Program-made: the position numbers and the translations under genes
Source: Escherichia phage a20
DNA: 64,000 bases
Direction: 5' to 3' (one strand)
Sequence record: OQ067374.1
Shown here: one piece after another, positions 1,046-11,048 of the stretch
Position numbering within the stretch: position 1 is the stretch's first letter
Layout: each line of letters opens with the position of its first letter
Notes under the pieces: model-generated
Told to the model about the DNA's origin: nothing
Seen by the model: the letters and a program-made list of their open reading frames with translations, nothing else
Database searches by the model: none

Positions 1046-1594
1046 TTAACGAGCCCATTTGATGATTTCTGTAATCAAAACATTACGTTCGCTTGCATTA
1101 AATCCTATAACTTTGTTAGCACCATCATGATTAAGTAATTGATACGTTTGGATTTTGTTATGAATTGCAAACTCTTCAAAATGTGAAATGACTGTATTAA
1201 AACCGAATGAAGACAAAGTAATAAGGTCGTCTTCAAAACTTTCAGTCATTTCGTTACGTGTTAAAATAATTGTGAACACATCATGGTTTTGGCAAAGACG
1301 AACATAATCCTGTTCATAAACGTCAAGAACCGAGTCCGCATCTTGTCGAATACGTCCATAAACCCAGTTACTAATATATCCACGGTCTAACAGATAAATC
1401 TTAGTAGGGTCTAAATAATTCAACATCGTTTCGAAACAGCCAACTTCATTTCGAGACTTAACATCGAAACGTCCATCAACTGTTCGTTTAGGGAAATCAA
1501 TCTTTACATATCTTTCACTAATTTCCATTATGTCATTAATGAAAGTTGTTTTACCAGCATTATCCGGGCCATCTACTAAAATAATTTTAGCCAT
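1046..1594 (-). CDS. P-loop kinase (NMP-kinase-like fold)
   Basis: 182 aa; Walker A GPDNAGKTT near N-terminus and LLDRGY resembling the thymidylate-kinase DRY motif. Lies where T4 has beta-gt. Confidence 0.5.
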   Translation of the reverse strand: MAKIILVDGPDNAGKTTFINDIMEISERYVKIDFPKRTVDGRFDVKSRNEVGCFETMLNYLDPTKIYLLDRGYISNWVYGRIRQDADSVLDVYEQDYVRLCQNHDVFTIILTRNEMTESFEDDLITLSSFGFNTVISHFEEFAIHNKIQTYQLLNHDGANKVIGFNASERNVLITEIIKWAR

Positions 1595-1595
1595 T

Positions 1596-2495
1596 TTATT
1601 CCTCGATTACGACATCTTCATATTTAGGTATATTATACGGTGAAGAAATTAAAGCATTAAAGTAGATGAACTCACCAAGACCTGGATGAAATACTTCTTC
1701 AGGATTTTCGAAATATTGAATCTTCGGACGTCCTTTAAGAATTTGATAGTATTCAGTTTTAGTTGGTTTAAAAATTCGAATCAACGCTTCTTCAGGATAC
1801 TTATTTCTGTCGAAGCTATTATTTGGATCGGTTATATAAAGCGGTTGGCCTAATTGAATTGCACATTCAACCACTTGTTCAAAACGATAGCATGGGTCAC
1901 TAATTCGAAATGGATGAAAAATACCATCTAGATGAATAGGAGCCAAATCACCTACAAGACGCTGCATGATGGAAGGACGTATAACTTTCTGCGTTACGAT
2001 AATCTTATTACCATCTGCACCTGCGTTAACCAGCACTTCTTTTTGACGTTCATTCAACACAGTAGTTTGAAGTGAACGATTAACCGACAACATATCGGTT
2101 TTTAAGAATTCGTCAATATAAAAACGTGGTTTATTAGGGTCTGCAGTGATATTGAAATTGAATTCTACATCAAAAGCGCCGTCATATCCGGTGATATCTG
2201 TGATTAGAAAATCACAATCATAATAAGCAATTAATGAATCAACCACAAATTCATTTTCAGTCCAGAAATATTTACGAGTGTTATACGCGTTATCTTTATA
2301 CCATAATGGAACAAACTTAAATTCTGGGAAAAGACGTTCACATTCTTTAATATCAGATGCATTACGTGGATATGTAATCACATCACCTGGATTAGCACGG
2401 TGCAAATGAAGTTGGAAGTTGCCATCCTTAAGGATAGCATACTGCCCAGTTTCATAAGACCGCATACTCAAAATAGGTACGCGGAAAATAGCCAT
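1596..2495 (-). CDS. hypothetical protein at the beta-glucosyltransferase locus
   Basis: 299 aa, tightly packed between the P-loop kinase and the hydroxymethylase; no resemblance to T4 beta-gt or alpha-gt as I recall them; contains a DCD (DxD-like) tripeptide. Confidence 0.55.
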   Translation of the reverse strand: MAIFRVPILSMRSYETGQYAILKDGNFQLHLHRANPGDVITYPRNASDIKECERLFPEFKFVPLWYKDNAYNTRKYFWTENEFVVDSLIAYYDCDFLITDITGYDGAFDVEFNFNITADPNKPRFYIDEFLKTDMLSVNRSLQTTVLNERQKEVLVNAGADGNKIIVTQKVIRPSIMQRLVGDLAPIHLDGIFHPFRISDPCYRFEQVVECAIQLGQPLYITDPNNSFDRNKYPEEALIRIFKPTKTEYYQILKGRPKIQYFENPEEVFHPGLGEFIYFNALISSPYNIPKYEDVVIEE

Positions 2496-3211
2496 TAGTC
2501 AAGGAATCCTTTAACATAATCAAAATCACGTTCAAACACATGGGCACTTACCATGGTATGAGTATAATCACCAACTTCTACACCACATTCGTTAGCGATA
2601 TAATGAAGTAATTTTCCTTGGAGATAAAAATCCAACTGCATAACAACAGCACAGTTCTGAGAACGCATATGACAGTGGGTATAAAGCTTACCATCACGAA
2701 TATAATAAGTCACTGAGTCAGTACATGGATATTCAAGAGTTTCGTCCGAATCAAGCAAAGCCTGATCAGAACTTTCTAGAATTTGGAACACAACTCTTCG
2801 AGAGTTAGGCTTCTCTTTAAGTTCTTTTAGAAGAGCTGGTAATTGGGCCGCAATGCGAGGACCATAGAAAGTGTTGAAGTTCGCCGGCAAAACATCTGAT
2901 TTTGGTTTAGAAATAAATTTAGCGACATTAGGATATGCCTTAAACGCTTCTTCTGCGTTGGTACCACCAGAAATCATAAACTTCCAGAAGTCTTCGGCAT
3001 ATTCATAAGAGATGCGGTTAATACGTGGGTCAGTCATTTTGAATGATGATGGAGTGTCAACAACTACTGTCATAGACCCAATTTCATTACAACGTCCAAT
3101 ACGAGAATCAGTTACGAATTCCGGGTTTTCTAAAATTTCACGATTGACTGCTTTAAATGCGGTTTGAAAATCTGCGGCTTTGATATATTTCATTGTGTTA
3201 TGTTTTCCCAT
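2495..3211 (-). CDS. 42: deoxypyrimidylate hydroxymethylase (thymidylate synthase superfamily, gp42-like, divergent)
   Basis: 238 aa; SRRVVFQ ... YPCTDSVTYYIRDGKLYTHCHMRSQN resembles the catalytic-Cys region of T4 dCMP hydroxymethylase; syntenic with gene 42; GAGGT precedes the ATG. Confidence 0.65.
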   Translation of the reverse strand: MGKHNTMKYIKAADFQTAFKAVNREILENPEFVTDSRIGRCNEIGSMTVVVDTPSSFKMTDPRINRISYEYAEDFWKFMISGGTNAEEAFKAYPNVAKFISKPKSDVLPANFNTFYGPRIAAQLPALLKELKEKPNSRRVVFQILESSDQALLDSDETLEYPCTDSVTYYIRDGKLYTHCHMRSQNCAVVMQLDFYLQGKLLHYIANECGVEVGDYTHTMVSAHVFERDFDYVKGFLD

Positions 3212-3253: not shown

Positions 3254-3493
3254 TTATTTGAATTTCTTAGCGATGTTGATATAACGTAAAGCTTCAGCAT
3301 CGATACTTCCAAGAACACTATGAAGAAATGCATCAGCGTAGTATTCCAATTGAACAGGTTCTTTAATCACTTTAGCCGCTTTGGTTCCAAACAGGCCCAT
3401 AAGGGCCTTTTTAAGAATTTGTTCATTAGTGTTCAGTTTCATAGTCAAAATCTCTTCATTAAGTTGGTGGTTAAAAGTTTTTCTAGAAATCAT
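3254..3493 (-). CDS. hypothetical small protein
   Basis: 79 aa ORF in operon context; no motif recognised. Confidence 0.4.
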   Translation of the reverse strand: MISRKTFNHQLNEEILTMKLNTNEQILKKALMGLFGTKAAKVIKEPVQLEYYADAFLHSVLGSIDAEALRYINIAKKFK

Positions 3494-4650
3494 TCTGGGT
3501 ACCTCAAAGCGTCATCAGAGTTAGTTATATCAATAATAGATATAGAATTTTCTGATAACCCATTTTTAGATAACTGACGTTTATAATATCTTTCACAATA
3601 TGTACACGTCGTCCCGCAGATTTCATTAGCACAATCGAAATCTGGATGTCTGAACCACCTTTTTTCTAAAAAGCCATCTAACAAAGAGGTTTCAATATTT
3701 ACTGTATGTGAAAACTCAGTTTCGTTTTCAAGAGTGAAAATAGTCTCTAAAGGCTTCCACAGTTCTAACAAATTACCTTCAAACTTTTCAGAAGCGTATG
3801 CTTCAAGAACTTTCAAAATGTAGTCTGTGCTACCTGTACGTCCTGAAACTTTGAATTGAGTGATACCAATATCATTATAAAGTTTCAAATCTTGAGGACG
3901 AACAAAACGAGTTCTCAACCAGTTAAATGGGTCTGTATCACGAGCTTTAATGCAGTGTTGCATTGGATATCCGTTTAAGGATTTAGCATCATCAGCTGTA
4001 ACATCAGTACTATGGAAAATATAGCAAGAGTCACGATAGCTACAATGTGTTGTATACCCTTTACCAGCATTAGAACAGAACTCATTTACAAGAACTTCAA
4101 ATATTATATTGTTCTTATTGCAAAACTCTGCTGCACGCTTCAGGAAAGAAACTGAACGGTTCTTATGAATTCCACAGCAGACCTTTTTGATATTATATTG
4201 GTCATGCAAGTATTTGATTTGAGTTACAGCATCGACATGTAGAATTGTTGAAACTTCAATCTCAATGTCTTTATTGACTTCACGAACAATTTCCATAACA
4301 ACAGGGTTAGCGATAGTAATACGCCATACGCCTATTGACCAAAGATACTGAACATAATCCTGAATAGCTTTCTTCTTCCACTCAACTAGTTCTCTTTTTG
4401 AACCAGGATTTATCGTGTTGAGTGTATAGTTAAAGCAAATACCTAATTCGTTACAACGTTTAACGTAATCTTCTAACATCTTTTTGTCAACGTCAGGAAG
4501 CCTAAAATCAGGTCTGGCTGCTACAAAAGCCATTTCTCTTGTAGAGCCGTATACTTCGTTTATCAAGCTATTAGGATAAGTTTTATTGAGCTCTACGATT
4601 TTATCAAGAAGAGCTAAATCAAAATTCGTTCCAATTTTAAAAGTATTCAT
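3490..4650 (-). CDS. hypothetical protein with C-terminal CX4CX3CX2C cysteine cluster
   Basis: 386 aa; C-terminal CANEICGTTCTYC plus further scattered Cys; no family confidently assigned. Confidence 0.6.
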   Translation of the reverse strand: MNTFKIGTNFDLALLDKIVELNKTYPNSLINEVYGSTREMAFVAARPDFRLPDVDKKMLEDYVKRCNELGICFNYTLNTINPGSKRELVEWKKKAIQDYVQYLWSIGVWRITIANPVVMEIVREVNKDIEIEVSTILHVDAVTQIKYLHDQYNIKKVCCGIHKNRSVSFLKRAAEFCNKNNIIFEVLVNEFCSNAGKGYTTHCSYRDSCYIFHSTDVTADDAKSLNGYPMQHCIKARDTDPFNWLRTRFVRPQDLKLYNDIGITQFKVSGRTGSTDYILKVLEAYASEKFEGNLLELWKPLETIFTLENETEFSHTVNIETSLLDGFLEKRWFRHPDFDCANEICGTTCTYCERYYKRQLSKNGLSENSISIIDITNSDDALRYPE

Positions 4651-4707
4651 TTTTTTTGCATCTCACGTTAATTGATGCGATGGTTTTTGCAGGTCTTACT
4701 TAAATTA

Positions 4708-5097
4708 TTATAGATTCGGTTTATATGATTTAAATGTTTCGAATTCGCCTTTATTCATAAGAGCTTTGAATTCGTCAGGACGCATAGCTTTGTCGTCGAT
4801 AATCCAATCATATACTGGTTTATGTGTTAGCAAATTATGGTACTTCAAACCAATGTTTTCCAAGTTCTGAATCAGACTTGGGAGAATGTCAATTGCTATA
4901 CGTCCAGGACCTACTGACTTCATACCGCGAGCAGTGTAAAGCGTTATGGTATGCCCTGCATCATACAGAGCATTAATAGCAGTCACCATTTCGACGTCTG
5001 GTTTGAAGTTCACGTAATCACGATTGTTATTCCACTCTGTTATACAATCATCGACGTCCACGCAAAGATGTAATGGTTTCATAGCAATATCCTTCAA
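4708..5097 (-). CDS. HAD-superfamily phosphatase-like protein
   Basis: 129 aa; LCVDVDDCIT resembles HAD motif I (DxDx); start may be the second Met at 5082. Its 5' end overlaps the 3' end of the homing endonuclease gene. Confidence 0.5.
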   Translation of the reverse strand: MKDIAMKPLHLCVDVDDCITEWNNNRDYVNFKPDVEMVTAINALYDAGHTITLYTARGMKSVGPGRIAIDILPSLIQNLENIGLKYHNLLTHKPVYDWIIDDKAMRPDEFKALMNKGEFETFKSYKPNL

Positions 5098-5809
5098 TAG
5101 AATTTTTAATATTATCAGCTATACGCTTTCTAGGAATACCCGTTTTCTTTTCAGCTATCCTAAGAGATTCATAGTAATTTTCGTTTATTTTAACAAATTT
5201 TTGAGACTTGTGAGCATTTTTGCTTTCGTCCTGATATCGATAATTAAGATATTTAGGCGATTTTACTCTCTTTTGAATCGTGGCAGAAGATATACCCAAA
5301 TCTTTAGCCGCTTCCCGACAGGATTCATAATATTTGCCATCTACATTAATCTTTAGACCATGTAATGCAGGTTTACCATACCTCCTGTGCTTTTCTTTAC
5401 CCCTAGCTATAGATTCAGCTGACAAAGTTTTACCCCATCTTGGGTTTTTATCACCAACTAAACGTCCTTTATTTGCCTTAGAAATTTTATCCTTGGACCT
5501 TTGGGATAACCCGTCAGAACCGCCTTCGCCACCAGTTTTAAGATTGTAATAATTTGGGTCTTTAACTATGTCTAATGTTATTAGAGCCTTTTCAGCTATT
5601 TTTAATTCTTCTCTCGAGCTATGGTAGGAAATGATTTCTTTAAGAAAATTTTCCTTCCCGTATTTCCTTTCAGCCTTTTTATATAATTTACCAGAACCTT
5701 TATATAAATCTAAAGGCTCGGCTTCTTCAGCCGAGTGCATTCCTAAATAAACTTTACCGTTTATAAGATTAGTAGTTTTGTAGAGATAATGTATCAAATT
5801 CGTTCCCAT
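5048..5809 (-). CDS. GIY-YIG homing endonuclease (seg-like)
   Basis: 253 aa; N-terminal IHYLYKTTNLINGKVYLGMHS is a GIY-YIG module; basic C-terminal DNA-binding region. Confidence 0.8.
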   Translation of the reverse strand: MGTNLIHYLYKTTNLINGKVYLGMHSAEEAEPLDLYKGSGKLYKKAERKYGKENFLKEIISYHSSREELKIAEKALITLDIVKDPNYYNLKTGGEGGSDGLSQRSKDKISKANKGRLVGDKNPRWGKTLSAESIARGKEKHRRYGKPALHGLKINVDGKYYESCREAAKDLGISSATIQKRVKSPKYLNYRYQDESKNAHKSQKFVKINENYYESLRIAEKKTGIPRKRIADNIKNSIEGYCYETITSLRGRR

Positions 5810-7479
5810 TGATGAGTGATATCGCCACCGATTGGACGATAGGAAACACCAGTTTCTTTATCAGTTAGTACCCATTTACCAGGATTTTTTGTAATCAGAG
5901 TAGCCGTTACAGGTTCTGCTACGTCATAACTAATAGAGCCGTCTTGAAGTACACGGCCCATATTACGTAATTGCTTAGTCAGAAGTTCCATACCTTTATA
6001 ATATGCGGCTACCGCTTTAAGTGGATTATTCTTGAAATAACCACCTAATGCAATCCAGATAATTGCCACTGCCAAATGATGATACTCGTTAAACGAACTC
6101 ATCTTTCCATATTTGTAAACTAATGGATTGATGTTAATAGTCACATTACAAGTTGTTTCATCAATAGTAAACTGTCCCCAGGTCGGATTAGCATTGAATT
6201 CATCATAACCTGAAACAGCATAAAGCACTTTAGCTTCATCATACAATTTTGGCCCGTAAATCTTGGTTTCGCCAAAATATCCACGAGGGTCGATAAACTT
6301 AACTTCGCCGTTATCAGTAATCATAGTATTACTGAAGTTCGGGTCACCATGAATAACAGAGTACTGTCCCTGAGAACGGTTATGATAACGAATAAGATGT
6401 TCTAAAGCTTGTTTCAGCATTGGCTTCAGACGTCCAATCTTAGTGTAGTTCACATGTGTGATTTTACCAAATGAATCAATCAATGGTTGAATGCTTTCAC
6501 AACGATCAATAACTTTCGTATAGAATTCTTTAGTGAAATCACGACGAACAGTTTCAGGACTTACAAAATAAGTGTCTGTGCTGAATTTCAGTGCATCTAA
6601 AATTGTATCAACAATTTGTGGACGAGCAAGACTTGATTTGGATTTAATATATTCAAATGCCGGCTTACCTTTAATGCGTTCCATTTCAAAGTTATTTTCA
6701 TTAACAGAAACTAACTGAGGGACTGAATCTGATTTCACTTTCAAATACCACGAAATCTCATCTTTCTGAAGAGCTCGGCCCTGTTCGGTTAATGCGAATT
6801 TAGTTACAGTTTCTTCACCGATTTCAACTGCATTAAAACTACGATTAAGTTCACGAACTTCATGAGCTTTTTCAAGTTTAGGCATATCACCTAAATCAAT
6901 TAGATTCATAAGCTCTGATTTATTGAATGCGCCGCTGTAAAGGAATTCTACGAAATCACGTCCTTTGCAGTATTCATGAATTTCTTCATCAGTAGAACCC
7001 ATATAGAATTCCCAGTCTTTGAACTGATAAATTCCTACAACATTACCACCTGTTGAACCTACGTTAGTGATATTTTCACCGTCGAAATTATATCGACATT
7101 CGTCGCCCTTAACATAGATTGCGTTAACATTCCAAGACCATGAACCAAAATCGGGAATAATATCACACCAGTTAACAATTACATTATGGCCGTCTAAATC
7201 TTTGTGTAATTTAGCAAGAGCATAAGCAGATCCATACGCTTCATCAACTGTACGAATAGTCACATTGAACCCTTCTTGCTCACAATAAGCTCGAACAGTT
7301 TCAGCAAATTTTGAATGAACTACTACAATAATTTCATCTGCGCCTAGGTCAGAATAAATTGTATACAAATTGCTCAGAATAGTGTCTTGTTTATAGTTAA
7401 CAAGCACCTTAGGAATATGGTGAGTAATTGGATATAAACGAGTTGCCAGTCCAGCACCAAGAATAACAGCTTTTTTCAT
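5794..7479 (-). CDS. bifunctional sugar-1-phosphate nucleotidyltransferase / APH-like sugar kinase
   Basis: 561 aa; N-terminus MKKAVILGAGLATRLYPITHHIPKVLV is the classic G-x-G-T-R-x-x-P nucleotidyltransferase signature; C-terminal VIHGDPNFSNTMI ... FIDPRG is the HGD-x4-N catalytic loop of APH/choline-kinase-type kinases. Confidence 0.75.
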   Translation of the reverse strand: MKKAVILGAGLATRLYPITHHIPKVLVNYKQDTILSNLYTIYSDLGADEIIVVVHSKFAETVRAYCEQEGFNVTIRTVDEAYGSAYALAKLHKDLDGHNVIVNWCDIIPDFGSWSWNVNAIYVKGDECRYNFDGENITNVGSTGGNVVGIYQFKDWEFYMGSTDEEIHEYCKGRDFVEFLYSGAFNKSELMNLIDLGDMPKLEKAHEVRELNRSFNAVEIGEETVTKFALTEQGRALQKDEISWYLKVKSDSVPQLVSVNENNFEMERIKGKPAFEYIKSKSSLARPQIVDTILDALKFSTDTYFVSPETVRRDFTKEFYTKVIDRCESIQPLIDSFGKITHVNYTKIGRLKPMLKQALEHLIRYHNRSQGQYSVIHGDPNFSNTMITDNGEVKFIDPRGYFGETKIYGPKLYDEAKVLYAVSGYDEFNANPTWGQFTIDETTCNVTININPLVYKYGKMSSFNEYHHLAVAIIWIALGGYFKNNPLKAVAAYYKGMELLTKQLRNMGRVLQDGSISYDVAEPVTATLITKNPGKWVLTDKETGVSYRPIGGDITHQWERI

Positions 7480-7663
7480 GTTGTGGTCCTCATTGGTAAG
7501 TAGGAGTATTGTACACTATTCTAGTTAAAGCATTCATACTTTGCTTGTAGTCCAATCATAATCCATCCAATTACAAGTGTTGGAATCATTACCGGAGCCG
7601 TTAAGCTCCAGTAGATAGTCATGACAAGCATCAATAGTAAAAGTCCTATTGCTATTGCTTTCA

Positions 7664-8296
7664 TTATTCGCCTCGTAACATGGCACCTAGTGCACCACCA
7701 GGGTGGAACTTAAGGAAATCATTAGAGGTAAATCCACGTTCAGACGAAAGGTTGATAGCAAACGTATCGATAAGCGCTAACAACAATGTAGTGGACATAG
7801 TCGGAGCCAGAGAATTCTCATCAACCTCTACTGCGATGCCTGTACAGAAAGAGTAATCAAAAAGGGCTTCATTTTCTTGTGGAATGTCTGGGTTACAATG
7901 CAACAGAATCTGTTTGACGTTCGGACGAATCATTTTAAGATGCTTAGCCACGCCTATCATTTCTTCAGTTTTACCAGAACGACTAATATGAATCAACACA
8001 TCATTAGGCGCAATGAATCCTGCATCACCGTGAGAATAATGCCCAGTGTTCAAGTACATACTCGGGATACCTAGTGAAGCAAAAGTCTCGGAAGCTTTAG
8101 TTGCGATATTAGCATTCTTACCAACACCTGTAATAATTACTCGGCTTTCATAATTACTAAGTCCCGGGCGTCGAAGAGTTTCTAGAATAGCATTATAACG
8201 AGCAGGGTTTTGACTAATTACTTTGGCCATAGCGGCCAAAGAAGAAGCTTGTTTTATGATTGCGTCAATAGCGATAGTAATAGGAGTAGTTTTCAT
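7664..8296 (-). CDS. SIS-domain sugar-phosphate isomerase (KdsD/KpsF-type, arabinose-5-phosphate isomerase-like, no CBS domains)
   Basis: 210 aa; VIITGVGKNANIATKASETFASLGIPS...HGDAGFIAPNDVLIHISRSGKTEE and LAPTMSTT...FHPGGALG align closely with the SIS domain of E. coli KdsD as I recall it. Confidence 0.75.
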   Translation of the reverse strand: MKTTPITIAIDAIIKQASSLAAMAKVISQNPARYNAILETLRRPGLSNYESRVIITGVGKNANIATKASETFASLGIPSMYLNTGHYSHGDAGFIAPNDVLIHISRSGKTEEMIGVAKHLKMIRPNVKQILLHCNPDIPQENEALFDYSFCTGIAVEVDENSLAPTMSTTLLLALIDTFAINLSSERGFTSNDFLKFHPGGALGAMLRGE

Positions 8297-8336
8297 ATTT
8301 CTCTCATTTAATTAGTTTACCGTCCATGGCATTATA

Positions 8337-11048
8337 TCAAAAATCGAACATATCGAACAGAGATGCTTTCTTCTCGTAATCGAGTTTCGCTGCTGATGTG
8401 AATCCTTCAAGTGGTTTAATAAATGTCTTCTCAAGGAGAACAGTGTAGTCCATCCAATGAAGTACGTCGTCTTTAATTAAATCTGTGATTTCAGTGCCAG
8501 AAGGCCATGCGATACATTTATCACCGAATGGGTTTCCTTCACGTAAAGGCAGAACATATACTTTTTCACCTTCTACAACTTGCGGTGCATCGATATTACC
8601 TTTGATAGCCCGGTTATATGTCAGAATTCCACGAATATGGAACGGACATTTGGGACCAGGGAATCCACCTACGTCATATTTAGCAATGTTATTCGCAGAA
8701 GATACCGACGCGATGCTAATATAATTCAATTGGCGGAATTCTTTTTCAAACTCTTTAAAATATTCTTGTAATGATTCTTCACCTTCTTGAAGCATACGAC
8801 GAATACATTCTTTAAGAGCTTTCTGTACTGCTTTAGGAGTCGAAGATTTCTGTGTTTCGAGACCCATGATTTTAAGCTTAGGTTCAGCGTATCTGGTTCC
8901 TTCCATATCCCACACGTTTAATGCATAACGTTTCTTACCAGTCCAGAATCCACCAATACCTTTAGAACCGAGCGGAGGACCAGCGATAGCTTCTCGGTCC
9001 ATGAACATCAAATGTTGCTTATTATTCATGTATTCGCACATTTCACGGAAACCTCTATCAATAGCAGGTTCCATACGTTCACGAGCGAACTTATCTAAGA
9101 AGTCTACCCAATGGTTGGTATCACGGAATTTAGATTCACCAACCTTATCGATAATTTTATCAGCAGATACGTAAATAGAGTCTGTATCACCATATAGAAC
9201 GAAAGCTTCACCTTCTGTACCACAAACTTCATTCAGATATTCATTAACTTTACGTTCAATCCACTGTAAAGCCATTTGACCAAATGTTGTGATTGCAGTA
9301 GCATTACGCAAATCATAATAACGGAACCAAACGTTGCCAAGTGCACCATAAAGTGAGTTGATAAGCAATTTACGGTTAATCTGTGCAGTCATACCTGCAA
9401 CTTCAGTACGTTGAGCTCTAAACAACATTTCATTAAGAGATTTAGCAGACAACTTTTTAATCTTTTCTTTAATCTCATCACTGAAGTCGAAACGATAATC
9501 AACATCTAATGGTTCGTCAACAGAAAGATTAGGATTATGCAATGCCTCTTTAATTATTTCACCATTACGTTGAGCTGCAAGCATGTAACCTTTATGTTCT
9601 TTACGTTGATTAAAGACCTTAGTGATTTCAGTTGGAACTACACCATCACGGTCTTTATAATACATCATGCCGTTAGGAGAGCAACTGTACACATCTGAAG
9701 GACGTTCAGCGATTGCGTTAATATAATCATGCAGTGGAGCTACTTTAAACGTTCCTGCTATTGTTTCCGGGCTAATATTCACTTGGCGAATAATACTTGG
9801 ATACAGAGATGTAAGGTCGAAACTCATTACATATTTGTATCGATTTGGAATAGGTTCCTTAACAAAAGCGCCAGGATAAGGTTGAACCGGGTGAGAACGA
9901 CCTTGTGGAATCACCTTGTTCTGCTCTTTAAGGCTATTAAAAATAATAGCATCCCATGTTTTAATTGGACTGAACACAGATTGAATCTGAATTTTAGCAT
10001 AATAACCCATGTCCAAGCTCAAGTTAATGAACTGGCGTTTAGCATCAATTTGCAATACACGATATACGTCGATGATGTTATAGCTTATATATCGTTGATG
10101 ATTACTTTCGCGAAGTTTAGAAATAGGACCGTCATATTTCAGTTTACCAACGTTCAATTCAAATTCTGAAATGTAATCCAGAGAATACGACGGTTGATTG
10201 GTAAAAGAGAATTTTTTGTAAAGGTCAATGTAATCAAGAACAGAGATACCGAACAATGTAATGATTTCACGAGAACCATACATGTTTTCGATAACTTTAA
10301 CACGAGTTTTACGATGCGGTGATAAACGTTTCGCAGTAGATTCGCCAAAAATATTCTTGATTCGGTTATACACATATGGAATATCAAATGACTCAACGTT
10401 CCATCCAGTCAAAATGACAGGAGTTTTCTGTTGCCAGAAGTTGAGATATTCCATCAACAATTCTTTTTCGTTATCGAACGGCATATAAATGATTTTATCG
10501 ATAATTTCAGATGGAACTTCATCACCGCCTTGTTCTTGAAGCTTAGCAGCGATTTCAATAGACCATTCTTCTACATTACCATACGGAGAATTCAATAGAT
10601 CAAATACGTAGAACCTGTCGTCAATTGAGTCATAATGGGTGATAGCATCAATCGGATGTTTTGCTTGTGACGGCTCAGGGAACCCATCCGGAGATGTTAC
10701 TTCGATGTCGAAGTTAGCCACACGAATTTTTGTATGGTCGTATTTGATTTCATAGTTATAAGTGTCAGACAAATACGCCAATTTGAAATCGTCCATGCCA
10801 AGTGCTTCAAGTCCGATATCTTCCATGCGTTTAATCCATTGGGAGGCATCACGCATATTAGCGAACAACTTACGAGTACACGGTTTACCGTAGATATCGA
10901 AATATTTCGTAGCCTGACTTTCTGGACAATGAGCAAACAGTGATGGTTTATATTCTACTTCACGAGTACGTTCACGGCCATTAGAATCGATGTAACGTTC
11001 AAAAATTGAATCACCAATCTGTTCAACCGTTAAGTAAAATTCTTTCAT
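8337..11048 (-). CDS. 43: DNA polymerase (family B)
   Basis: 903 aa; exonuclease FDIE and polymerase YGDTDS motifs; reads as RB69 gp43 from memory. Confidence 0.97.
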   Translation of the reverse strand: MKEFYLTVEQIGDSIFERYIDSNGRERTREVEYKPSLFAHCPESQATKYFDIYGKPCTRKLFANMRDASQWIKRMEDIGLEALGMDDFKLAYLSDTYNYEIKYDHTKIRVANFDIEVTSPDGFPEPSQAKHPIDAITHYDSIDDRFYVFDLLNSPYGNVEEWSIEIAAKLQEQGGDEVPSEIIDKIIYMPFDNEKELLMEYLNFWQQKTPVILTGWNVESFDIPYVYNRIKNIFGESTAKRLSPHRKTRVKVIENMYGSREIITLFGISVLDYIDLYKKFSFTNQPSYSLDYISEFELNVGKLKYDGPISKLRESNHQRYISYNIIDVYRVLQIDAKRQFINLSLDMGYYAKIQIQSVFSPIKTWDAIIFNSLKEQNKVIPQGRSHPVQPYPGAFVKEPIPNRYKYVMSFDLTSLYPSIIRQVNISPETIAGTFKVAPLHDYINAIAERPSDVYSCSPNGMMYYKDRDGVVPTEITKVFNQRKEHKGYMLAAQRNGEIIKEALHNPNLSVDEPLDVDYRFDFSDEIKEKIKKLSAKSLNEMLFRAQRTEVAGMTAQINRKLLINSLYGALGNVWFRYYDLRNATAITTFGQMALQWIERKVNEYLNEVCGTEGEAFVLYGDTDSIYVSADKIIDKVGESKFRDTNHWVDFLDKFARERMEPAIDRGFREMCEYMNNKQHLMFMDREAIAGPPLGSKGIGGFWTGKKRYALNVWDMEGTRYAEPKLKIMGLETQKSSTPKAVQKALKECIRRMLQEGEESLQEYFKEFEKEFRQLNYISIASVSSANNIAKYDVGGFPGPKCPFHIRGILTYNRAIKGNIDAPQVVEGEKVYVLPLREGNPFGDKCIAWPSGTEITDLIKDDVLHWMDYTVLLEKTFIKPLEGFTSAAKLDYEKKASLFDMFDF

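Follow-up and report, generated by a model that had tools for sequence, protein, structure and literature searches.

The window, a stretch of 64,000 nucleotides from Escherichia phage a20 (OQ067374.1), is 98–99% identical to phages BEU50 and NRG-P0074 and belongs to Mosigvirus, the RB69-like T-even phages. Positions 5794..7479, on the minus strand like all other features located below, hold a real gene for a two-domain sugar kinase and nucleotidyltransferase of 561 amino acids. It is called as an open reading frame, PHROG 4098 aligns over the full length of its product (E 8e-295 in a profile search), and the product shares 99% identity with the representative of the Mosigvirus cluster. The primers with which Thomas 2018 cloned the RB69 gene can be placed at gene positions 7-34 and 1654-1686 with two mismatches per primer, and RB69 ORF53_52c has exactly the same length (1686 nucleotides, 561 amino acids); judged by sequence, the two genes are orthologs, ORF53_52c being also named gp52:53. 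A sequencing error splits the gene in the GenBank entry of RB69, but the a20 copy is unbroken; Thomas 2018 recognised the RB69 product as one 561-residue multidomain protein. Lee et al. 2026 annotated gp52:53 as nucleotidyltransferase and kinase, with the amino- and carboxy-terminal domains assigned as in the present analysis, and equated it with AfhE of phage HY126. Versions from Acinetobacter phages and Thanatos are 54–57% identical over the full length, and DLP3 gp82 and TH1_060 of Shewanella phage Thanatos are listed beside RB69 gp52:53 as the closest known proteins.

The amino-terminal domain (residues 1-205, 6865..7479) is a sugar-1-phosphate nucleotidyltransferase domain, predicted to be the UDP-arabinose pyrophosphorylase half of the enzyme. 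Pfam PF00483 matches residues 3-99 with 38.9 bits (cut-off 21.2, E 9.4e-10) and is also matched by 37 of 44 homologs. The nucleotide-binding signature loop G-x-G-T-R...K is present as GAGLATRLYPITHHIPK (residues 8-24, 7408..7458), with the second glycine replaced by alanine, and G10, R14 and K24 are invariant among the 44 homologs, as are D106, D195 and D198, which we infer, by analogy, to be the acidic metal ligands. When the predicted model was compared with known structures using Foldseek, the domain showed a Rossmann-like alpha/beta fold, with RmlA (6b5e), LicC (1jyl), MurU (4y7v) and GMPPB as neighbours (probability 1.0, TM-score on the target up to 0.72). Its best sequence match in the PDB is LicC (1jyk, E 2e-5); a PDB search with the full-length sequence gave only distant matches to this domain, and no AfhE chain.

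The carboxy-terminal half contains an APH/choline-kinase-like, that is eukaryotic-like, small-molecule kinase domain (residues 210-507, 5959..6852), the putative anomeric (C1) kinase half. Pfam kinase families all score below their gathering thresholds for this protein (APH 14.3 bits against 23.2, Fructosamin_kin 17.1 against 22.4). Among the 44 homologs, 20 match Pfam APH at E <= 0.01, the best at 6e-10, and P0056 (25.6 bits) and P0082 (28.6 bits) lie above its cut-off. Foldseek results for the full-length model were dominated by the amino-terminal domain, and the kinase fold was read from a second model, of residues 205-561. This model has the bilobal eukaryotic-like kinase fold, and its neighbours are APH and choline kinases, LicA and the anomeric kinases maltokinase, MTR kinase and NahK. 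The H-x-D-x4-N catalytic loop is HGDPNFSN (H377-G-D379-P-N-F-S-N384, residues 377-384, 6328..6351), and is followed by D397 within the Mg-binding IDPRG motif, the DFG equivalent (residues 396-400, 6280..6294). D397 lies 13 residues past N384, and this spacing, like that of five from D379 to N384, is presumably the one found in APH(3')-IIIa. All 44 homologs have D379, N384 and D397, and at least 90% of them have H377; K227 (strand 224-229) and E241 (helix 232-247), likewise invariant, form the lysine/helix glutamate pair of the N-lobe. The catalytic residues of both halves are kept in all 44 homologs, down to 29% identity. Pfam, Foldseek and the conserved motifs thus bear out the earlier note, which had placed an amino-terminal sugar-1-phosphate nucleotidyltransferase and a carboxy-terminal APH/choline-kinase-type kinase in one polypeptide, and profile searches did not assign the carboxy-terminal domain to a non-kinase family. 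The kinase half also contains the invariant basic residues R213, R326, R399, K417 and K488, which could bind a 5-phosphate; we do not count them as evidence on the order of the reaction steps.

Beyond the kinase domain, the protein ends in a beta-rich carboxy-terminal tail (residues 508-561, 5797..5958), delimited from the predicted model and from homolog coverage and modelled with pLDDT values of 81-89. The tail is conserved in homologs from T4-like phages and absent from cellular and giant-virus-type homologs; homologs with about 89–90% coverage end near residue 500. This phage-only extension might tether the enzyme to the phosphatase or to a transferase, so that the bisphosphate is handed over, not released.

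The gene is clustered with genes for an isomerase, a HAD phosphatase, a 5-hydroxy-dCMP synthase and a glycosyltransferase, a neighbourhood devoted entirely to arabinose and nucleotide metabolism, and the cluster order is identical to that of RB69 in Table 1 of Lee et al. 2026. Two genes upstream, with one 47-residue open reading frame in between, lies a gene (7664..8296) for a SIS-domain protein, the RB69 gp55 equivalent and predicted D-arabinose-5-phosphate isomerase acting from ribulose-5-phosphate (NCBIfam KpsF/GutQ E 2e-32, KdsD 7e-31; Pfam SIS; Lee et al. 2026). On the other side, 4708..5082 encodes a small HAD-type phosphatase with a DVDD motif (NCBIfam TIGR01689 capsule-biosynthesis phosphatase, E 1e-13), equivalent to RB69 gp51 and AfhF (Lee et al. 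2026). A rare homing endonuclease gene sits between the phosphatase gene and 5794..7479; in this the window differs from the HY126 cluster. NRG-P0074, BEU50 and JM17 carry the insert as well. In phages without the insert, the stop codon of the AfhE-type gene overlaps the phosphatase start codon (TAATG), which implies co-expression of the two genes. A promoter and terminator scan of positions 4600-8400 gave counts not above those of shuffled sequence.

On the acceptor side of the pathway, 2495..3211 encodes a thymidylate-synthase homolog (Pfam Thymidylat_synt), the RB69 gp48 equivalent and putative 5-hydroxy-dCMP synthase (Lee et al. 2026). It is about 98% identical to PDB entries 9iqc, 9ir2 and 9iqu; 9iqc, 238 residues long and named 'Thymidylate synthase' in its deposition, probably represents the HY126 enzyme, which would make HY126 a very close relative. 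The product of 1596..2495 is a putative first DNA arabinosyltransferase, the RB69 gp46:47 equivalent, named after the glycosyltransferase annotation in NRG-P0074 and Table 1 of Lee et al. 2026; it matched nothing in Pfam or NCBIfam. The adjacent 1046..1594 encodes a thymidylate-kinase-like nucleotide kinase (RB69 gp45 equivalent). The cluster also includes a gene of the peptidase U32 family (3490..4650, RB69 gp50 equivalent; Pfam U32 E 7e-11), which is of the Fe-S type and highly conserved, with ten invariant cysteines, and might conceivably act in an O2-independent, prephenate-dependent hydroxylation of dCMP.

Taken with the published work on RB69, these observations make it very probable that the bifunctional AfhE has its Mosigvirus ortholog in the product of 5794..7479, the connection running through RB69 gp52:53 and not through a HY126 sequence. 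The two domains, their catalytic residues and folds, the neighbourhood and the RB69 orthology come from the present analysis; the substrates and the step order are taken, at second hand, from the literature. As Lee et al. 2026 relay from He et al. (Nat Chem Biol 2026), D-arabinofuranose-5-phosphate is the substrate that AfhE turns into the 1,5-bisphosphate, AfhF then strips the C5 phosphate, and HY126 AfhE is a UDP-D-arabinose pyrophosphorylase using UTP and D-arabinose-1-phosphate. Transposed to phage a20, the route would start with the SIS isomerase, which by homology and synteny would turn host ribulose-5-phosphate into D-arabinose-5-phosphate. The carboxy-terminal kinase would then transfer a phosphate from ATP to the anomeric hydroxyl, so that D-arabinofuranose-1,5-bisphosphate is formed; in this reaction, K227 and E241 are predicted to hold the ATP, D379 to act as catalytic base and N384 and D397 to bind Mg. 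Between the two AfhE steps, the separate HAD phosphatase would take off the 5-phosphate. The amino-terminal domain, with G10, R14, K24, D106 and D195/D198, would convert arabinofuranose-1-phosphate and UTP into UDP-D-arabinofuranose and pyrophosphate, and phage glycosyltransferases would finally move the arabinose onto 5-hydroxycytosine of the phage DNA. HAD, SIS, nucleotidyltransferase and AfhE-type kinase domains are also found joined in one chain of 890–955 residues, as Rosetta-stone fusions.

The order of kinase and phosphatase rests on one cited study, known through Lee et al. 2026, whose own Table 1 gives the reverse: gp51 'dephosphorylates Araf5p to Ara' and the carboxy-terminal domain 'Phosphorylates Ara to Araf1p'. 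Were the phosphatase to free D-arabinose first, the kinase would act on the free sugar and the nucleotidyltransferase directly afterwards, and the fusion alone would suffice, as in AmgK/MurU or FKP. Direct hand-over is attractive given the domain fusion, and the structural neighbours NahK, maltokinase and MTR kinase use non-phosphorylated anomeric hydroxyls. However, the text of Lee et al. 2026, updated after He et al. 2026, has AfhE converting Araf5P to Araf1,5P before AfhF removes the C5 phosphate, and heptose-1,7-bisphosphate 7-phosphatase is among the structural neighbours of the phosphatase, so we regard the free-sugar order as improbable. The earlier note had proposed that one enzyme suffices to turn a free sugar into the NDP-sugar; this does not agree with the account in the text of Lee et al. 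2026, in which the substrate is arabinose-5-phosphate and the separate phosphatase (4708..5082) is needed between the steps. Its suggestion that the protein forms the donor for DNA glycosylation does coincide with the assignment of gp52:53 by Lee et al. 2026, in which the sugar is D-arabinose.

The identity of sugar and nucleotide is not readable from the sequence, and the same two chemistries might serve another pentose or a CDP, GDP or dTDP carrier: LicC, the best PDB sequence match of the amino-terminal domain, uses CTP, and the Thanatos paper, which names a (deoxy)pentose, left TH1_060 unassigned. Against this, the DNA of the Mosigviruses RB69 and NP bears mono- and di-arabinosyl-5-hydroxycytosine, the arabinose-5-phosphate isomerase gene lies two genes upstream, phage DNA arabinosyltransferases accept UDP-Araf as a donor in vitro, and at second hand AfhE is said to be a UDP-D-arabinose pyrophosphorylase. 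A different sugar or carrier in phage a20 is therefore very unlikely. Thanatos needs TH1_060 (54% identity) for growth, which favours the AfhE assignment; a negative result on the other side is that the purified protein formed no NDP-sugar from xylose-1-phosphate, albeit a non-cognate sugar, with any NTP.

Least probable of all, with hardly any chance of being correct, is a function outside donor formation. The CDD match to the GT-A superfamily reported by Thomas 2018, and the retention of TH1_060 as a glycosyltransferase candidate by the Thanatos authors, would favour a DNA glycosyltransferase; LicC and LicA, a choline pathway pair, are top structural neighbours and would suggest phosphocholine activation; and GenBank records carry the names 'dCMP deaminase' and 'GlmU'. 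Yet the nucleotidyltransferase signature loop and its lysine are invariant in the 44 homologs, scores against phage glucosyltransferase models were poor (Thomas 2018), TH1_060 moved no sugar onto DNA, and the gene's neighbours all belong to arabinose and nucleotide metabolism. The Pfam search found no deaminase or acetyltransferase domain, and we rejected both of these labels; the glycosyltransferase label, likewise without a supporting domain, was rejected too.

The product of 5794..7479 has the architecture of the AfhE class, an amino-terminal nucleotidyltransferase and a carboxy-terminal kinase in one chain of about 560 residues. The ADP-heptose route also employs an isomerase and a bifunctional kinase/nucleotidyltransferase, HldE, with the HAD phosphatase GmhB acting in between. 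The pathway logic is shared (SIS isomerase, bifunctional enzyme, intervening removal of the distal phosphate), an analogy and not a membership. HldE combines a ribokinase-like kinase with a cytidylyltransferase-type (HIGH) transferase, folds unrelated to the APH-like kinase and RmlA/GlmU-like transferase found here. Neither PfkB nor CTP_transf_like was matched by our protein in Pfam, which, together with its folds, rules out an HldE-type enzyme. In AmgK/MurU, LicA/LicC (which also exist as the fusion LicCA) and NahK systems, an APH-like kinase and an RmlA-like nucleotidyltransferase activate small molecules. These are the same two folds, and the domains described here have MurU, LicC, LicA and NahK as direct neighbours in structure; the kinases AmgK, LicA and NahK, however, act on non-phosphorylated substrates (MurNAc, choline and GlcNAc), with no phosphatase in between and mostly as separate proteins. 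FKP, the Bacteroides L-fucokinase/GDP-fucose pyrophosphorylase, and the Leishmania arabino/fucokinase-pyrophosphorylases, which make GDP-D-arabinopyranose, likewise have an amino-terminal pyrophosphorylase and a carboxy-terminal anomeric kinase in one chain, but differ in the GHMP fold of the kinase, free-sugar salvage, the GDP carrier and the pyranose form. The two-domain architecture is that of HY126 AfhE itself, which, as summarised by Lee et al. 2026, is partnered by an isomerase, AfhF, a flavin-dependent 5hodCMP synthase and arabinosyltransferases in a phage of E. coli.

That the arrangement is unusual for a phage, as the earlier note supposed, does not hold: 373 phage records, spread over many T4-like genera, contain the same nucleotidyltransferase-kinase fusion, and PHROG has a separate family for it over the full length. 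Its description dates from 2018 and its functional assignment from 2025–2026; for RB69-like phages the enzyme is ordinary, and the gene, its domains and its role in forming the arabinose donor are already published. Four-domain fusions, including phosphatase and isomerase, were seen in bacteria and in probable giant viruses, on contigs with MutS-HNH, Rpb2 and Rpb10; a literature search on giant-virus arabinose fusions found nothing relevant. We tentatively propose, as a possibility that we consider rather less than even, that a portable cassette leading from ribulose-5-phosphate to NDP-D-arabinose has the nucleotidyltransferase-kinase fusion as its core and is present well beyond the T4-like phages, and that in these phages the enzyme is tethered through the tail. 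If so, glycosylation from NDP-arabinose, whether on DNA or on virion glycans, would be far commoner than the published cases.

The practical value of the analysis lies in correcting GenBank annotation, where near-identical genes are named 'hypothetical protein', 'GlmU' or 'dCMP deaminase' and the phosphatase partner gene 'phosphoheptose isomerase'. Arabinosylated 5-hydroxycytosine protects phage DNA against restriction enzymes and alters sensitivity to defence systems; once the donor-forming genes are recognised, the DNA chemistry of therapeutic T4-like phages therefore becomes easier to predict.

The interval 5794..7479 on the minus strand is exactly one open reading frame of 561 codons, with an ATG start, a TGA stop and a ribosome-binding site (AGGA) 7 nt upstream. 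The protein, AfhE-like after its counterpart AfhE of Escherichia phage HY126, has the N-terminus MKKAVILGAGLATRLYPITHHIPK. The HGDxxxxN catalytic loop that the earlier note had claimed for the C-terminus is present as an exact match, HGDPNFSN, at residues 377-384, with IDPRG 13 residues further on. Of the GxGTRxxP signature claimed for the N-terminus, the equivalent loop is there, GLATRLYP, but not the literal pattern: alanine replaces the second glycine, which in the homolog alignment is the family-wide consensus. In six frames of the 64-kb window, each motif occurs once, within this gene.

Profiles, models and invariant residues agree that both proposed domains, a nucleotidyltransferase fused to an APH-like kinase, are real. 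Pfam NTP_transferase matches residues 3-99 (E 9.4e-10; 38.9 bits, cut-off 21.2), many NCBIfam sugar-1-phosphate nucleotidyltransferase models match below threshold, and the top PDB sequence match is the CTP:phosphocholine cytidylyltransferase LicC (E 2e-5). The kinase half scores under the Pfam gathering score of every kinase family (APH 14.3 bits, fructosamine kinase 17.1); Pfam APH is matched by 20 of the 44 aligned homologs (best 6e-10), and of six homologs scanned one by one, two exceed its cut-off. The full-length AlphaFold2 model, calculated from an alignment of 44 sequences, is very confident (pLDDT 94.2, pTM 0.91), and its N-terminal domain resembles RmlA, LicC, MurU and GDP-mannose pyrophosphorylases. 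Residues 205-561, modelled separately (pLDDT 93.4), gave the aminoglycoside kinase-type fold of APH(2'')-IIa in Foldseek (3ham, E 1.3e-7). In homologs down to 29% identity, Gly10, Arg14, Lys24, Asp106, Asp195 and Asp198 of the transferase half and Lys227, Glu241, Asp379, Asn384 and Asp397 of the kinase half are invariant; judged by sequence, these are the residues expected to be catalytic. The APH matches in homologs, the APH(2'')-IIa fold and the invariant kinase residues thus speak against placing the C-terminal domain in a non-kinase family. A beta-rich tail (5797..5958, minus strand; residues 508-561; consensus T..P.KW.L.D.E....Y...W) is kept in T4-like phage versions; homologs from bacteria and those of giant-virus type stop at about residue 500 and lack it. 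The tail might serve in oligomerisation or docking to pathway partners.

The a20 gene encodes the counterpart of an already published protein, RB69 ORF53_52c or gp52:53. ORF053c and ORF052c of RB69 form one expressed 561-residue protein of complex domain structure, for which, with ORF055c, a role in UDP-arabinose synthesis was proposed (Thomas et al. 2018, PMC6024577). The a20 and RB69 genes are equally long, and the RB69 primers of that study differ from the two ends of the a20 gene by two bases each. RB69 DNA contains mono- and di-arabinosylated 5-hydroxycytosine and no hydroxymethylcytosine, and gp52:53 was modelled as an N-terminal nucleotidyltransferase (MurU 4y7t, LicC 1jyk) and a C-terminal kinase (3ham, choline kinase, 6hwl) (Lee et al. 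2026, PMC13326640), the same structural neighbours that we obtained independently for the a20 protein. UDP-arabinofuranose is a working donor in vitro for phage DNA arabinosyltransferases, and TH1_060, the homolog from Shewanella phage Thanatos (54% identity), is essential for growth. The suggestion that the enzyme forms a donor for DNA glycosylation was right as to purpose.

The region shares 98-99% identity with genomes of Mosigvirus, the RB69-like T-even phages infecting E. coli. In NRG-P0074, an annotated relative, the gene lies in a minus-strand block with DNA polymerase on one side and UvsX on the other. The block, all on the minus strand, starts with a SIS-type arabinose-5-phosphate isomerase (7664..8296), followed by a 47-residue hydrophobic open reading frame (7521..7664), the AfhE-like gene, a GIY-YIG/NUMOD homing endonuclease (5048..5809), a small HAD phosphatase (4708..5082) and a U32-family protein (3490..4650), and ends with a thymidylate-synthase homolog (2495..3211), a glycosyltransferase and a thymidylate-kinase-like protein. 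The 47-residue product, MKAIAIGLLLLMLVMTIYWSLTAPVMIPTLVIGWIMIGLQAKYECFN, is very hydrophobic and probably forms two membrane helices; the start codon of its reading frame and the stop codon of the isomerase gene overlap as ATGA, a family search gave no match and relatives' annotation calls it "hypothetical". The thymidylate-synthase homolog is about 98% identical to PDB entries 9iqc, 9ir2 and 9iqu; the simplest explanation is that these structures show the HY126 enzyme, which He et al. crystallised, and that a20 and HY126 are very closely related.

The best-supported route from ribulose-5-phosphate to arabinosylated 5-hydroxycytosine has five steps. The isomerase would produce D-arabinose-5-phosphate, which the kinase half of the fusion would convert with ATP to arabinofuranose-1,5-bisphosphate; the HAD phosphatase would leave arabinofuranose-1-phosphate, the transferase half would form UDP-arabinofuranose with UTP, and the arabinose would then be moved onto 5-hydroxycytosine. 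The fusion would thus catalyse two non-consecutive steps, the second and fourth, because the phosphatase acts between them. The logic is that of the ADP-heptose route (GmhA, HldE, GmhB), with different folds. The earlier idea of one enzyme taking a free sugar to its NDP derivative does not hold here, as the substrate would be arabinose-5-phosphate and a separate phosphatase is needed between the steps of the two halves. According to He et al. (2026), as related by Lee et al. (2026, PMC13326640), who equate gp52:53 with AfhE, AfhE converts D-arabinofuranose-5-phosphate into its 1,5-bisphosphate and acts as UDP-D-arabinose pyrophosphorylase; between these two steps, the 5-phosphate of the bisphosphate is taken off by the HAD phosphatase AfhF. 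An order in which the phosphatase acts first and the kinase then uses free arabinose, still shown in Table 1 of Lee et al., we regard as very improbable; no analysis made on the a20 sequence or models tells the two orders apart. The five-step route fits three independent observations: the overlap of the AfhE-like stop with the phosphatase start (TAATG) in endonuclease-free relatives, the match of the phosphatase to an NCBIfam "capsule biosynthesis phosphatase" model, and the existence of four-domain fusions.

These fusions, of 890-955 residues, join HAD phosphatase, SIS isomerase, nucleotidyltransferase and AfhE-type kinase in one chain, are 29-35% identical to the a20 protein and retain every catalytic motif; from their sequences, a single chain would comprise the whole route from ribulose-5-phosphate to NDP-arabinose. 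They include P0092 (locus L006), P0084 (L003-L005), flanked by Rpb10, MutS-HNH, Rpb2 and an autophagy-related gene, and P0120 (L007-L008), whose neighbours are dUTPase, a DEAD/DSHCT helicase, a GT2 glycosyltransferase, epimerases and a second paralog, of NT+HAD+APH composition. The contexts of P0084 and P0120 look like giant viruses (Nucleocytoviricota), and one fusion comes from a eukaryotic transcriptome. Nothing on four-domain arabinose fusions was found in the literature searched.

The two-domain arrangement, thought unusual for a phage, is not so. It has its own full-length PHROG family (phrog_4098, E 8e-295); by tblastn, the full-length protein is present in 373 of 50,697 phage records, with hosts including Escherichia, Acinetobacter, Klebsiella, Shigella, Serratia, Enterobacter, Proteus, Yersinia and Vibrio, and a large protein database holds 310 homologs. 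GenBank names near-identical genes "dCMP deaminase" (NRG-P0074) or "bifunctional protein GlmU" (mogra, phi25-307), those of Acinetobacter phages "mannose-1-phosphate guanyltransferase" or "capsular polysaccharide", and the phosphatase is misnamed "phosphoheptose isomerase"; wrong annotations of both genes (matches to 4708..7479) are propagating.

The Seg-like endonuclease gene lies exactly between the AfhE-like and phosphatase genes, overlapping both: its ATG is 16 nt inside the AfhE-like 3' end, and at its own 3' end it runs into the start of the phosphatase gene. The insert (approximately 5056..5797) takes the place of 42 nt of endonuclease-free relatives, including the first 13 or so phosphatase codons, and the phosphatase N-terminus is MKPLHLCVDVDD with it and MHRVENMLNLCFDVDD without. 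It is present in only three of the 50,697 phage records (NRG-P0074, BEU50 and JM17).

The peptidase-U32-family gene inside the arabinosylation cluster is equivalent to RB69 gp50, for which Lee et al. (2026, PMC13326640) give no more than "sugar or heterocycle reductase". In all 221 phage records that carry the gene, identity is 80% or higher, a much stronger conservation than that of AfhE in these phages, and its product has ten invariant cysteines, including a C-terminal Cx4Cx3Cx2C. The 57 phage records of Acinetobacter, a strict aerobe, that contain AfhE essentially lack the U32 gene. Relatives of about 55% identity (L010, L011, L012) are on very large phage-like contigs, beside genes for dCMP deaminase, DNA polymerase (PolIII-alpha), UDG, NT5C and deoxynucleoside kinase. 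The U32 proteins RlhA and TrhP produce 5-hydroxy-pyrimidines (ho5C, ho5U) in RNA, and the U32 relatives UbiU/V are O2-independent hydroxylases. Because of this conservation, absence, cysteine content, neighbourhood and chemistry, we hypothesize that the U32 protein may provide an anaerobic, Fe-S-dependent route to 5-hydroxycytosine, complementing the O2- and flavin-dependent ThyA-like synthase.
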